Source of the DNA: a virus
Lineage: Duplodnaviria > Heunggongvirae > Uroviricota > Caudoviricetes
Virus record (IMG/VR): IMGVR_UViG_2690316049_000001
Span: 1 to 9,686 of that record
Strand: one strand, 5' to 3'
DNA: 9,686 nt
Shown here: positions 5,038 to 6,714 of the stretch, one piece after another
Layout: each line of letters begins with the position of its first letter
Numbering within the stretch: position 1 is the stretch's first letter
Notes under the pieces: model-generated
Told to the model about the DNA's origin: nothing
The model's database searches: none
What the model saw: the letters and a program-made list of their open reading frames with translations, nothing else
Translations under genes and position numbers: made by a program

Positions 5038-5559
5038 GTGATAGCTGAACTGTCTGCGGCTATGGCCGCTATAAAGGAGACTGCCGGTCTTGCTAAGGTT
5101 ATTAATGACGCGAAAACGGATGCAGAAGTTAAAGCTGCAACCATTGAACTCCAGAACAAACTAATCACGCTTCAGGCAGAATGCTTCTCTCTTGGCGATG
5201 CGATCCGCCTTCGTGATGAAGAGGTGATGCATCTCAAAGCAAAAATTGCAGAGTTTGAAGATTTTTGTGCCAAGGTAGAAGGATATGTCCTTGATCAGCT
5301 TGACTCTGGTGCTTTTGTTTACTCTAAAAATGAAATTGTGAGTGGAAAAGAAATAACTGTGCATCTGTGCCCACTTTGTTATTCCAAAAATATAAAATCG
5401 ATACTTCATCCGCTTCCAGTAGGTAAAACTTCTCATTTTCTTACAAGCCGTTGCCTTCACTGTGAAAATAAATTTCTTATGGAAAAAAATCCGATGTACG
5501 AACGACCAAGATCATTACGTGAGTTGGGGCGAGATCTGAATTCGCCTTGGATTCCTTAA
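5038..5559 (+). CDS. Hypothetical coiled-coil plus C4 zinc-ribbon protein (moron-like, convergent with cI)
   Basis: 173 codons from GTG 5038 (alternative ATG at 5062). N-terminal half is predicted helical (IELQNKLITLQAECFSLGDAIRLRDEEVMHLKAKIAEFEDF). C-terminal part has Cys-x2-Cys, 24 residues, Cys-x2-Cys (HLCPLC ... CLHC). Strongly AT-rich, unlike its neighbours. Followed by an intrinsic terminator. The start codon is uncertain because neither candidate has a strong SD. Confidence 0.6.
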   Translation: MIAELSAAMAAIKETAGLAKVINDAKTDAEVKAATIELQNKLITLQAECFSLGDAIRLRDEEVMHLKAKIAEFEDFCAKVEGYVLDQLDSGAFVYSKNEIVSGKEITVHLCPLCYSKNIKSILHPLPVGKTSHFLTSRCLHCENKFLMEKNPMYERPRSLRELGRDLNSPWIP

Positions 5560-5601
5560 ATCTTGCATTGGTTGGATGATACCCAGATTGTTAAAGAGCT
5601 A

Positions 5602-5624
5602 AGCGTCCTGTAGGGCGCTTTTTT
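5602..5624 (+). terminator. Rho-independent terminator downstream of the 5038-5559 ORF
   Basis: agcgtcc-tgta-gggcgct: 7-bp stem with one G.U pair and a 4-nt loop, followed by a run of six T (5619-5624). Confidence 0.6.
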
Positions 5625-5702
5625 GTTGCTAACGAATCATCCTGGACTTCATATGCCCCAGGCGGCTACTTCGTGGGCGTCCTGCCTGTTCGTTATCTTT
5701 GA

Positions 5703-5731
5703 TATAAAATCTAACTTAACTTAGTTGTCAT
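5703..5731 (-). promoter_or_regulatory. Candidate leftward (pL-like) promoter with an operator-like 14-mer (OL-a, CTAACTTAACTTAG, 5711-5724) in its spacer
   Basis: On the minus strand: -35 ATGACA (5731..5726), spacer, weak -10 TTTATA/TATATC (about 5708..5701). The 14-mer CTAACTTAACTTAG matches the CTAA-N5-CTTAG motif found twice in the cI-cro intergenic region. Lies just downstream of the cI stop, where OL/pL sits in lambdoid phages. Confidence 0.3.
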
Positions 5732-5789
5732 GGCAAGAGAAAACACCAAACTTTTCTTAGTTCGGTGCCTTAGTTAGAGAAGAGAGGCC

Positions 5790-6416
5790 TTAGAGTTCGT
5801 ATTGAACTCCTTTGACTACACCAATGATAAGGCAATTACCATTGATAGGGATGTTGGGATACCGAGGATTTAATGGTACTAAAAACTTTTGAGGGCCATC
5901 GATGACTAATTTTTTTACTGTAGCTTCGTTTGTTCCATCAAGTCGAGCGATGACTATTTTTCCATGACGAGGTTCTGCATCTGGATCTACAATCACTGTT
6001 GCGCCTTCTGGTATTGTTGGGAGGCCATTAGGGTTAGTCATGGAGTCACCTTTAACCTCTAATGCAAATGAGTTATCACCAACCTTTAATGATGTATCTA
6101 CCCACTTGTCCACTTCACTAAACACTTCTGCTGCCCTGCACTCAGTAAACTGCCCAGCCTGAACCCACGATATTACAGGAACTCTGCGCATGTTTGTGAC
6201 GAGTTTGCCTTCAAACTCAGCACCATAAAGAATGTAATCTATTGACGTATTGAAGAACTTCGCTAATTTCGAAAGTGCCTCCCCACCAGGGGTATTGATG
6301 TCTTTCTCCCAGTACCCCACAGCAACGTCGCTTACTCCACAAAATTTACCCAATTCTTTCTGGGACGTTCTGGTAACTCTTCTCAGAGCTTTTATACGCT
6401 GACCAACCGTTTCCAT
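5790..6416 (-). CDS. cI: CI-like prophage repressor (HTH_XRE plus S24 LexA-type autopeptidase domain)
   Basis: 208 aa. N-terminal HTH (TSQKELGKFCGVSDVAVGYWEKD). Ala-Gly cleavage site (WVQAGQF). S24 catalytic motifs visible (GDSM with the Ser, downstream Lys in TVKKL). Divergent from the cro-like gene. Confidence 0.9.
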   Translation of the reverse strand: METVGQRIKALRRVTRTSQKELGKFCGVSDVAVGYWEKDINTPGGEALSKLAKFFNTSIDYILYGAEFEGKLVTNMRRVPVISWVQAGQFTECRAAEVFSEVDKWVDTSLKVGDNSFALEVKGDSMTNPNGLPTIPEGATVIVDPDAEPRHGKIVIARLDGTNEATVKKLVIDGPQKFLVPLNPRYPNIPINGNCLIIGVVKGVQYEL

Positions 6417-6428
6417 AGGAGCACCATT

Positions 6429-6491
6429 TCTTTAATTGCTAAGTAATCTTAGTTTTTATTGACCAAAGATAGATTTGTAATTAGCATCTAA
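6429..6491. promoter_or_regulatory. OR-like operator/promoter region: two 14-bp CTAA-N5-CTTAG sites flanking a candidate pR
   Basis: OR-a CTAAGTAATCTTAG (6429-6442, palindromic outer arms) and OR-b CTAATAAAACTTAG (6478-6491). Between them: -35 TTGACC (6449-6454), 17-nt spacer, -10 TAGCAT (6472-6477). OR-b overlaps the -10 and start-site region. SD GGAGGG precedes the cro ATG at 6514. Confidence 0.5.
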
Positions 6492-6513
6492 TAAAACTTA
6501 GTTTGGAGGGCGT

Positions 6514-6714
6514 ATGACAACTGACGATATCGAAAGCTACTTCGGCAGTATTGAGAAAGTTGCTGCTTTTTTCGGCATAACAACTGAAGCCGTTTATCAG
6601 TGGCGAAACCGTCCGGGCCAGTTAATTCCAAAAGGACGTGCAGCAGAAGCTGCATATAGAACTTGCGGACGGTTGCCATTTAAACCTGAGCTTTATGAAA
6701 AATCTAATGGATAA
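6514..6714 (+). CDS. cro: Cro-like small HTH regulator (YdaS/Cro family)
   Basis: 66 aa, HTH (IEKVAAFFGITTEAVYQWRN), strong SD, divergent from the cI-like gene across the operator region. Confidence 0.85.
   Translation: MTTDDIESYFGSIEKVAAFFGITTEAVYQWRNRPGQLIPKGRAAEAAYRTCGRLPFKPELYEKSNG

Follow-up and report, generated by a model that had tools for sequence, protein, structure and literature searches.

CTAAG-N4-CTTAG repeats in a defective E. coli prophage: predicted operators of a P22-type immunity switch

Which protein, if any, reads the short inverted repeats that flank the repressor gene of a prophage remnant at tRNA-Thr/proA in E. coli? The stretch of DNA analyzed here (the window, 9,686 nucleotides) is a defective, truncated lambdoid prophage, the right arm of which is deleted. 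A preliminary description had noted three copies of CTAA-N5-CTTAG around the repressor gene, and proposed that they are OL and OR operators for a CI-like or Cro-like protein. A pattern search of the window returned the same three sequences and the same position for the first (5711-5724), while the other two had been placed 10 bp too low: they lie at 6439-6452 (not 6429-6442) and at 6488-6501 (not 6478-6491). The repeat unit is a 14-bp dyad, CTAAG-N4-CTTAG, which forms the core of an 18-bp site. Based on the analyses described below, we consider it very probable that these sites are operators of a P22-type immunity switch. The type of switch would be ordinary, whereas its specificity appears to be previously undescribed. 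A literature search for the exact operator strings gave no match, and the literature on mEp460, an isolated phage with the same repressor module, consisted of genome-annotation mentions only. We refer to the sites as predicted operators.

The 1.16-kb repressor module is not confined to this element. At least 80% of its length is present in 516 of 5,426 complete E. coli genomes, or about a tenth, and besides mEp460 it is carried by the isolated phages vB_EcoS-569R4, Kati and LLS. Two genes of the module encode candidate binding proteins:

5790-6416, minus strand: CI/C2-like repressor gene, 208 aa (Pfam HTH_3, 1.3e-9; Peptidase_S24, 1.8e-27)
6514-6714, plus strand: cro-like gene, 66 aa (Pfam P22_Cro, 4.4e-11)

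Residues 3-65 of the repressor align without gaps to residues 4-66 of the P22 C2 N-terminal domain (E 4.4e-11; phmmer, PDB), the matching PDB entries being 3JXB, 2R1J and 1ADR, all from P22 C2. The C-terminal domain matches that of lambda CI (E 5e-28), with VQAG at the cleavage site and KK in both proteins and with GDSMT aligned to GNSMT, and it is predicted to be a LexA/S24-type self-cleaving domain. Ahead of its start codon, the repressor mRNA carries at least about 22 nt of leader, which contains a Shine-Dalgarno-like GGTG. The cro-like protein matches N15 Cro (2HIN, E 9e-5) and P22 Cro (1RZS, E 0.02).

Five predicted operator sites were assigned in the window:

5711-5724: OL1, CTAACTTAACTTAG, core of the 18-mer 5709-5726; exact pattern match and top matrix score
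5747-5760: OL2, CAAACTTTTCTTAG, core of the 18-mer 5745-5762; a weaker site, detected by its similarity to OL1 in a repeat search
6439-6452: OR3-like site, CTAAGTAATCTTAG, core of the 18-mer 6437-6454; arms perfectly palindromic, so that the pattern matches either strand
6464-6477: OR2-like weak central site, CAAAGATAGATTTG, core of the 18-mer 6462-6479; assigned by position and homology
6488-6501: OR1-like site, CTAATAAAACTTAG, core of the 18-mer 6486-6503; pattern match

It could be argued that such repeats reflect nothing more than chance or the AT-richness of promoters, with no specific binding protein behind them. The region is indeed AT-rich, promoter-like hexamers overlap or abut the sites, and the short word CTTAGTT taken alone is moderately enriched (6 copies against 1.25 expected, a count reached in 2 of 200 shuffles). 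The full pattern behaves differently. CTAA-N5-CTTAG has four matches in the window at three sites, the palindromic one at 6439-6452 being counted on both strands, where 0.08 were expected, and none of the 200 shuffles reached four. The count across host DNA that the preliminary description had proposed was made over 200 kb of an E. coli chromosome containing the element at 100% identity, and these three sites were the only matches. Similarly, in 330 kb flanking the relatives the extra matches were four clustered sites at two loci (L015 and L024). A weight matrix trained on relatives only was used to scan 9,669 positions of the window; its top four scores were OL1 (25.5 bits), the OR1-like site (22.8), the OR3-like site (20.9) and OL2 (13.0), as compared with a best score of 7.9 bits across 150 kb of E. 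coli and a shuffle maximum with a mean of 6.7 bits and a 95th percentile of 13.3 bits. The arms are also dyad-symmetric. Together with the strict conservation across genera and the covariation with the repressor described next, these results leave almost no room for an origin by chance or base composition, and we regard specific operator sites as the far better account.

The comparison with related prophages, also proposed earlier, was made with 20 relatives at 64-90% identity from Enterobacter, Kosakonia, Kluyvera, Serratia, Rahnella, Yersinia, Rouxiella, Providencia and Proteus. Both the position and the sequence of the sites are preserved, while the surrounding intergenic DNA diverges; in phage LLS (77% identity overall) the sites are invariant and the adjoining intergenic bases differ. 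The OR3-like site, which is the one nearest to the repressor start, is found in 19 of the 20, and its distance to the OR1-like site is exactly 49 bp in every relative with both. Among 37 distinct sites from the relatives, the T, A and A of the half-site never vary, nor do their symmetric partners; the outer C/G position holds 1.79 bits, the centre 0.6-0.9 bits, and an A/T two bases beyond the core 1.35 bits. The half-site here reads A(A/T)CTAAG. Across the wider family, the dyad covaries with the recognition helix of the repressor: VSDVAVGYWE occurs with CTAAG, VSHVAISQWE with TTAAG, VSRVSVSLWE with GTAAG, VNRVTVTGWE with GTAGG or GTAAG, and VEQPVISQLE with ATAAG. Because the dyad changes when the recognition helix changes, these data support pairing the sites with the repressor.

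Could the sites nevertheless be primarily operators of the 66-aa P22_Cro-family protein, with the CI-like protein reading something else? The cro gene lies directly to the right of the sites, lambda-type switches have Cro acting on the same operators as the repressor, and Cro and the sites occur together in 14 of the 20 relatives. In the other six, however, which have the same repressor helix, the sites are retained even though no homologue of Cro lies within 700 bp. Since the sites persist in these relatives, they track the CI-like protein and not Cro. The covariation across the wider family points the same way, and xTAAG-N4-CTTAx is the form known for the homologous P22 C2 domain. We therefore consider it very unlikely that the CI-like protein reads something else. 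The sites are likely to be shared by the repressor and Cro, and are not likely to be exclusive to Cro. Of the two kinds of protein named in the preliminary description, the CI-like one is thus the one that the sites follow. The interpretation of the layout given in that description is supported by the HTH_3 and S24 domains of the repressor, the dyads over divergent promoters, the conservation and the P22-like geometry.

The promoters that these predicted operators would control were located as follows; in the promoter scan, hexamer matches were no commoner than in shuffles (3 found against 2.9 expected).

5708-5736, minus strand: candidate pL (-35 TTGCCA at 5736-5731, 17-bp spacer, -10 TAGATT at 5713-5708)
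6459-6487, plus strand: candidate pR (-35 TTGACC at 6459-6464, 17-bp spacer, -10 TAGCAT at 6482-6487)

On the left, the relatives have TTGACC or TTGACA at the -35 position of pL and an invariant TAGATT, and transcription would start near 5701. OL1 sits in the spacer between the two hexamers, just as first described, and overlaps the -10 by 3 bp, a position that is also that of P22 OL1. LLS, mEp460 and most relatives share its exact sequence, while the flanks diverge. OL2 lies 10 bp upstream of the -35, and its score, the fourth-best in the window, is just under the 95th percentile of the shuffle maximum. At its position, Yersinia and Providencia relatives have full-consensus sites and the Proteus relatives have sites with a single mismatch (CTAATAAAACTTAG, CTAAATAAACTTAG and CTAAGTAGATTTAG). 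Additional CTTAGTT half-sites had been reported at 5756, 5769 and 5789. The word is present at the first two positions, and only that at 5756 is part of an operator, as the right half of OL2; position 5789 reads CTTAGAG and contains the repressor stop codon (5790-5792). Both 5769, which is not conserved in mEp460 or other relatives, and 5789 were rejected as a third OL site. In the clade of the window no third OL site was found, and two are evident.

Conservation of OL2 may have more than one cause, as it overlaps a hairpin on the repressor strand:

5744-5767, minus strand: hairpin CACCGAAC-N8-GTTTGGTG followed by UUUUCUCUU, a probable intrinsic terminator of the repressor transcript

The hairpin has a fold energy of -16.3 kcal/mol (z -1.7). 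Pairing holds in 97.5% of cells across 10 relatives, with a compensatory change from C-G to U-A at one pair, and the U-run that follows is conserved; a terminator scan of the window did not include this repressor 3' hairpin among its calls. The overlap with this terminator-like hairpin could by itself explain part of the conservation of OL2. The hairpin also explains the GGTG directly before the CTTAGTT at 5769, though not CTTAGTT itself.

On the right, two sites were said to bracket pR, and they do: the OR3-like site lies upstream of the pR -35 at a distance of 6 bp, with 22 bp between it and the start codon of the repressor gene, and the OR1-like site begins directly after the -10 and spans the inferred pR start. 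The 18-mer of the latter opens with the final two bases of the -10, and so does that of P22 OR1. The relatives have an invariant TTGAC and either TAATAT or TAGTAT as the -10; downstream of pR there is a GGAGG and then the cro ATG. A weak third site between the two had been overlooked. It lies within the spacer of pR, adjoining or overlapping the -35; the three OR sites (6439, 6464 and 6488) are spaced 25 and 24 bp apart. Is this central site real, or is OR bipartite, with only the three strong sites and perhaps OL2 in use and 6464-6477 a mere promoter spacer, unlike the tripartite OR of lambda and P22? Taken alone the central site is insignificant, as it scores 1.7 bits against the mean shuffle maximum given above, and its right arm, ATTTG, matches CTTAG in 3 of 5 positions. 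Its placement points the other way. In a table of 20 loci (the window, mEp460, LLS and 17 relatives), the best partial dyad apart from the OR3-like and OR1-like sites falls exactly 25 bp from the OR3-like site in 20 of 20, with a mean of 6.8 of 10 positions, although the spacer is otherwise free to vary. The deviation is symmetric (A for T at the second base and T for A at the 13th) and is the same, at the same position, as in P22 OR2, ACTAAAGATTCCTTTAGT, which is placed identically relative to its TTGACT as the central site is to the -35 here. In some relatives the central site is near consensus (CTAATAAAGATTAG and TCAACATAACTTAG). Moreover, weak central sites that are filled cooperatively are the norm in lambda and P22. 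A two-site OR is therefore improbable in our view, and a tripartite OR with a weak middle site is preferred.

A promoter for maintenance of the repressor can be suggested from the OR3-like site itself:

6446-6451, minus strand: candidate maintenance-promoter -10, TAAGAT, within the OR3-like site

Here the sequence ATCTTA is invariant in 20 of the 20 tabulated loci, while the other sites mostly have AACTTA. TAAGAT is found at the same place in P22 OR3, AGTTAAGTCATCTTAAAT, which is the counterpart of this site, and in Photorhabdus and Xenorhabdus relatives. Hexamer matching on the minus strand of 6417-6513 gave no convincing -35. The alternative pairs of TAGCAA or AGCAAT with TGGTCA or TCAATA are not conserved and were rejected. 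With TAAGAT as the -10, the central site would lie over the -35 and not at a lambda-like -42; hence positive autoregulation by the repressor cannot be assumed.

Taken together, a working model of the switch can be proposed, in which binding, order of occupancy, cooperativity, start sites, the maintenance promoter and inducibility are all what we infer. Dimers of the 208-aa repressor would bind the 18-bp dyads with the core CTAAG-N4-CTTAG, each helix-turn-helix reading one outer half-site and the four central base pairs being left uncontacted. Occupation of the two cro-proximal OR sites would block RNA polymerase at pR, and occupation of the repressor-proximal OR site would turn down the repressor's own promoter, while the two OL sites would cover pL. 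The lambda-CI-like C-terminal domain would provide dimerisation, cooperativity and RecA-stimulated self-cleavage, and Cro would probably act on the same sites. As the prophage is truncated, the switch may no longer have a lytic programme to control. In practical terms the finding adds only a modest amount: the repressor module can be given predicted operators and promoters together with a likely immunity specificity, and this assignment predicts the phages to which a strain that carries the remnant should be immune. Further, the graded series of C/T/G/A-TAAG dyads with their helix variants provides natural data on how P22-type repressors recognize their sites.

The DNA beside OL holds a further element, possibly the more valuable lead:

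5631-5694, minus strand: structured leader RNA of 64 nt at the 5' end of the pL transcript; not an operator
5694-5689 with 5636-5631, minus strand: helix P1 of the leader RNA
5686-5676, minus strand: helix P2
5662-5658 with 5645-5641, minus strand: helix P3

In 17 distinct copies of the leader RNA, the helices are paired in 97.5% of cells, and compensatory changes occur at 10 of 14 pairs, a number that none of 500 shuffles reached. The exact 22-nt core occurs in at least 120 viral contigs. The RNA begins a few bases past pL, and about 100 other phage contigs have it behind strong sigma-70 matches. It matched no Rfam family; when the entire window was scanned against Rfam (E <= 1), only STnc100 was returned. 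No second copy was found in the window, from which the right arm of the prophage is deleted. We considered whether the element is merely the upstream part of an N-dependent nutL. The window does have a boxA-like word, GCTCTTTAAC, at 5598-5589, but such a word lies within 260 nt downstream in only 9 of 113 distinct copies, which argues against this. The put RNA of phage HK022 was likewise rejected as an identity, since blastn against the HK022 pL region gave only chance words of 8-11 nt; the core is also absent from the put material in the supplement of PMC9378689. There is nevertheless a likeness. HK022 putL is about 70 nt long and lies just downstream of PL (PMC9378689); the leader RNA opens the pL transcript, measures about 64 nt and is structured. 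putL forms two stem-loops (PMC9378689), whereas the leader RNA has three helices, and put RNAs come as a pair, putL and putR, one after each of pL and pR. The leader RNA could represent a second, unrelated class of protein-independent antiterminator RNA.

This suggestion is one half of a joint reading that we offer tentatively and think doubtful as a whole. The other half is that the immunity specificity of P22-C2-like repressors might be largely set by the single outer base of xTAAG-N4-CTTAx, which is C here, T in P22, and G and A in other clades; two or three recognition-helix residues would be its counterpart in the protein. If true, it would supply a compact recognition code for building orthogonal switches.

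Of the known switches, that of lambda is similar in its homologous S24 C-terminal domain, divergent promoters, tripartite OR with a spacing of about 24 bp and an OL over pL, and the motif CAGGACGC is common to both pL leaders. It differs in that the N-terminal domain of the present repressor has no match to that of the lambda repressor, the lambda operators (TATCACCGC...) have a length of 17 bp and an unrelated sequence, and there are no rex genes here. Measured from the start of the repressor gene, the central site is also placed differently than in lambda, so that activation of the maintenance promoter from -42 is not to be assumed. The operators of phage 434 are 14-bp dyads (ACAA-N6-TTGT) and resemble the present sites in being short, with non-contacted central bases, and in being read by the same general helix-turn-helix fold class; they differ in half-site sequence and in the length of the centre, and the 434 repressor was not among the PDB sequence matches of our repressor at E <= 0.01.

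The closest resemblance is to P22. The P22 repressor has an 18-bp site, the central 4 bp of which are untouched (PMC4267663). P22 has OR1-3 and OL1-3, each of 18 bp, with the consensus ATTTAAG-N4-CTTAAAT, and the TAAG core of the half-site with four variable central bases is shared. So is the order of a repressor-proximal site, a -35 with TTGAC, a weak symmetric-variant site in the spacer and a -10 that abuts the third site. OR spacing is 25 and 24 bp here and 25 and 23 bp in P22, the distance from OL1 to OL2 is 36 bp here and 35 bp in P22, the promoter overlaps at OR and OL are the same, and both have a Cro of the P22_Cro family. In contrast, P22 has three OL sites where two are evident here, and its c2 ATG directly abuts OR3, whereas the repressor mRNA here has a leader. 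The N-terminal domains are only about 40% identical. The outer specificity base is C here (CTAAG) and T in P22 (TTAAG), and the recognition helices are SDVAVGYWE and SNVAISQWE, respectively, with the residue pairs D30/N32, G34/S36 and Y35/Q37. P22's own immunity specificity, with its ATTTAAG half-site and SNVAISQWE helix, is thus not matched. Since both half-site and helix differ, we predict that this switch is of the P22 kind with a distinct immunity type, and that no cross-immunity with P22 is to be expected.

A pattern search of the window confirmed three copies of the 14-bp CTAA-N5-CTTAG motif, which the preliminary description had put forward as candidate OL/OR operators flanking the repressor gene. 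The first copy lies where it had been placed; the second and third had each been positioned 10 bp too low. The three sites gave four matches to the pattern, since the middle one also matches on the opposite strand. Only 0.08 matches were expected, and none of 200 dinucleotide-preserving shuffled windows gave four or more. The features relevant to the operators are as follows.

Motif copies, genes, candidate promoters and weak central site
5711-5724: motif copy 1, CTAACTTAACTTAG, exact pattern match
6439-6452: motif copy 2, CTAAGTAATCTTAG, exact pattern match on both strands
6488-6501: motif copy 3, CTAATAAAACTTAG, exact pattern match
5790-6416, minus strand: repressor gene between the motif copies, 208 aa, HTH_3 and Peptidase_S24 domains
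6514-6714, rightward: cro-like gene, P22_Cro family (N15 Cro, E 9e-5)
6459-6464 and 6482-6487, plus strand: candidate pR from the promoter scan, -35 TTGACC and -10 TAGCAT
5736-5731 and 5713-5708, minus strand: candidate pL from the promoter scan, -35 TTGCCA and -10 TAGATT
6464-6477: weak central OR2-like 14-mer, CAAAGATAGATTTG, assigned by position and likeness to P22 OR2; overlooked in the preliminary description

The repeating unit is a 14-bp dyad, CTAAG-N4-CTTAG, whose arms form a perfect palindrome at the 6439 site. In 200 kb of an E. coli chromosome carrying the element at 100% identity, no matches were found beyond the three window sites. The motif is thus not common in the stretch examined, and the check for genome-wide abundance by which the preliminary description proposed to judge it favors the finding. 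The word CTTAGTT occurs at 5720, 5756, 5769, 6448 and 6497. Of the additional half-sites proposed earlier, 5756 is the right arm of a predicted second OL site (OL2, 5747-5760). We rejected 5769 as an operator half-site because it is not conserved in phage mEp460 or elsewhere, and 5789 instead reads CTTAGAG and holds the repressor stop codon.

Comparison with related prophages, also proposed earlier, supported the sites. Phage LLS has all three sites unchanged, along with a fourth that is weaker, amid intergenic bases that differ. A scan of one genome per species yielded 20 repressor relatives (64-90% identity) from Enterobacter, Kosakonia, Kluyvera, Serratia, Rahnella, Yersinia, Rouxiella, Providencia and Proteus. 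CTAAG-N4-CTTAG lies 21-34 bp from the repressor start in all of them except L015, a Serratia metagenome-assembled genome (MAG). Wherever this repressor-proximal site is present, a second site follows exactly 49 bp on, directly after a -10 hexamer, and relatives with an early-left region of the window's type also carry the OL site(s). A second pair of consensus dyads, likewise 49 bp apart, was observed in L015 (~2011-2073) and in the gammaproteobacterial MAG L024 (~1935-1997), ~500 bp beyond the repressor-proximal OR. This suggests a duplicated operator region or a gene inserted between the repressor and the rightward operon.

A weight matrix was built from 37 distinct sites of the relatives, with the window excluded. 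Its four highest-scoring window positions were 5709-5726 (25.5 bits), 6486-6503 (22.8 bits), 6437-6454 (20.9 bits) and 5745-5762 (13.0 bits). Maxima in shuffled windows averaged 6.7 bits (95th percentile, 13.3), and the highest score in 150 kb of E. coli was 7.9 bits. The information profile of the 37 sites is of the P22 type: the T, A, A positions and those symmetric to them do not vary, the outer C/G hardly does, and the four central positions show only an A/T bias. Because A/T is also conserved two bases beyond the core, the site is effectively 18 bp long.

The repressor itself points in the same direction. An ungapped alignment matches its first 65 residues to the P22 C2 DNA-binding domain (E 4e-11; PDB 2R1J, 3JXB and 1ADR), and residues 75-205 align to the C-terminal domain of lambda CI (E 5e-28), with VQAG, GDSMT and KK opposite the cleavage-site and catalytic motifs. 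A CII/CP76-family gene lies downstream of the cro-like gene. The preliminary description had left binding to a CI-like or a Cro-like protein. Among more distant relatives, the dyad type shifts with the repressor recognition helix. VSDVAVGYWE, the helix of the window's clade, is paired with CTAAG; VSHVAISQWE, found in Photorhabdus and Xenorhabdus (VSNVAISQWE in P22), with TTAAG; VSRVSVSLWE with GTAAG; VNRVTVTGWE with GTAGG or GTAAG; and VEQPVISQLE with ATAAG. In six of the 20 close relatives, moreover, the sites are kept even though Cro has no homologue within 700 bp of them. This covariation and the Cro-less loci argue that the sites track the CI-like protein, although by analogy with P22 and lambda, Cro likely uses the same sites.

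The layout at OR closely resembles that of P22. Our reading of the P22 c2-cro interval gives, in order, AGTTAAGTCATCTTAAAT beside the c2 start, TTGACT running into ACTAAAGATTCCTTTAGT and GATAAT running into ATTTAAGTGTTCTTTAAT, with start-to-start spacings of 25 and 23 bp. In the window, an 18-mer at 6437 comes first, then TTGACC running into one at 6462 and TAGCAT running into one at 6486, at spacings of 25 and 24 bp. By itself, the central 14-mer lacks significance (1.7 bits). However, the interval's best partial dyad falls at offset +25 in each of the 20 tabulated loci (the window, mEp460, LLS and 17 relatives; mean 6.8 of 10 positions), and the window site shows the symmetric substitutions (T to A at base 2, A to T at base 13) that set P22 OR2 apart from the P22 consensus. 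Based on these observations, we take OR to have three sites, of which the central one is weak. On the left, OL1 of P22 lies within the pL spacer, 35 bp from OL2; the window's counterparts, 5711-5724 and 5747-5760, are 36 bp apart. The OL2 position is occupied by full-consensus sites in Yersinia and Providencia relatives and by one-mismatch sites in Proteus relatives. In the relatives, pL has TTGACC or TTGACA as its -35 and the same -10, TAGATT, as the window.

Within the OR3-like site (6439-6452), the minus strand reads TAAGAT at 6451-6446. None of the 20 tabulated loci departs from this hexamer. The equivalent positions in the other sites are mostly AACTTA, and P22 OR3 has the same hexamer in the same place. 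These observations support an OR3 role. TAAGAT could be the -10 of a maintenance promoter; no -35 was found for it, and if it is the -10, the central OR site would cover the -35 region. Geometry, conservation, repressor homologies and the covariation of helix and dyad together support the reading of the sites as operators. We predict that repressor at the OR1-like (6488-6501) and OR2-like sites would shut pR and at OL1 and OL2 would shut pL, that occupancy of the OR3-like site would limit repressor synthesis, and that repression would be relieved through RecA-stimulated self-cleavage at the repressor's Ala-Gly site.

Two predicted RNA structures lie on the leftward strand.

Predicted RNA structures between the repressor gene and the early-left genes
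5767-5744, minus (repressor) strand: hairpin, then UUUUCUCUU, a U-run to ~5737
5694-5631, minus strand: structured 64-nt leader element, three helices, invariant core AGGCAGGACGCCCACGAAGTAGCC

The hairpin and U-run lie directly past the repressor stop codon and extend as far as the pL -35. Across 10 relatives, paired cells make up 97.5% of the total, and one pair shows a compensatory change, C-G to U-A. The hairpin probably serves as intrinsic terminator for the repressor transcript and would insulate pL from repressor-gene transcription. Since it overlaps OL2, part of the conservation of OL2 in the clade may stem from the hairpin.

On the predicted pL transcript, the leader element occupies the 5′ end, a few bases past the inferred start. 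It was found in at least 120 IMG/VR contigs and in 49 deposited phage genomes; in all of the latter, regardless of the type of repressor, it sits between the repressor 3′ end and the early-left gene that comes first. The three helices are supported by 17 distinct copies, in which 97.5% of cells are paired and 10 of 14 pairs show compensatory changes, support matched by none of 500 shuffles; one helix has at least 11 different fully complementary versions among 113 distinct copies. The best sigma-70 -10 ends 20-23 nt ahead of the core in 48 of 118 copies, and the presence of the element supports the pL assignment. An Rfam scan returned no family for it, no similarity to HK022 putL was found, and a boxA-like word follows it in just nine of 113 copies. 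A put-like antiterminator, a processing site and an extended nut region are candidate roles. In the window, a boxA-like GCTCTTTAAC lies downstream on the pL strand (5589-5598, minus strand; CGCTCTTTAAC in P22 and Kluyvera relatives), with no obvious boxB hairpin or N-like gene after it in the prophage element.

The window belongs to a lambdoid E. coli prophage. Its 1.16-kb immunity module is 100% identical in many E. coli chromosomes, and at least 80% of it is present in 516 of 5,426 complete E. coli genomes. Identity is 99% in vB_EcoS-569R4, vB_EcoM-689R6 and Kati, 95% in mEp460 and 77% in LLS. Strain WCHEC020031 carries the element as a truncated remnant adjoining tRNA-Thr and proA, in the order integrase, early-left genes, repressor, cro, ymfL, DUF4222 gene, tail-fibre gene and fragment, GIY-YIG gene and IS1. 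The remnant (~12 kb; the whole window, and 17800-29700 of locus L083) jumps straight from the DUF4222 gene to the tail-fibre gene. Despite this truncation, the immunity module is whole, and hundreds of E. coli genomes carry it in identical form, a pattern that would fit retention as a superinfection-immunity cassette. In the early-left region, a full-length Rfam match to the STnc100 sRNA (RF02076; 4704-4926, minus strand; 49.1 bits, gathering score 47; E 2.3e-8) covers DNA that RefSeq annotates as a hypothetical gene with a frameshift. An antisense 173-aa ORF (5038-5559, plus strand) with its own strong terminator (5601-5620, plus strand) is inserted between pL and the early-left genes. It has no family assignment, a DUF641 match being weak and sub-threshold, and mEp460 has a 122-aa leftward gene in its place. 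The ORF looks like a moron whose transcription would run against pL.

The leader RNA is a more unusual object than the operators, and it shares the motif CAGGACGC with the very start of the pL transcripts of lambda and P22. A literature search found no paper containing these operator sequences, and their specificity appears to be undescribed. It is nevertheless a predictable variant of the P22 type, and our comparisons support a P22-type repressor-operator module that is ordinary in kind and differs from P22 in its specificity base.
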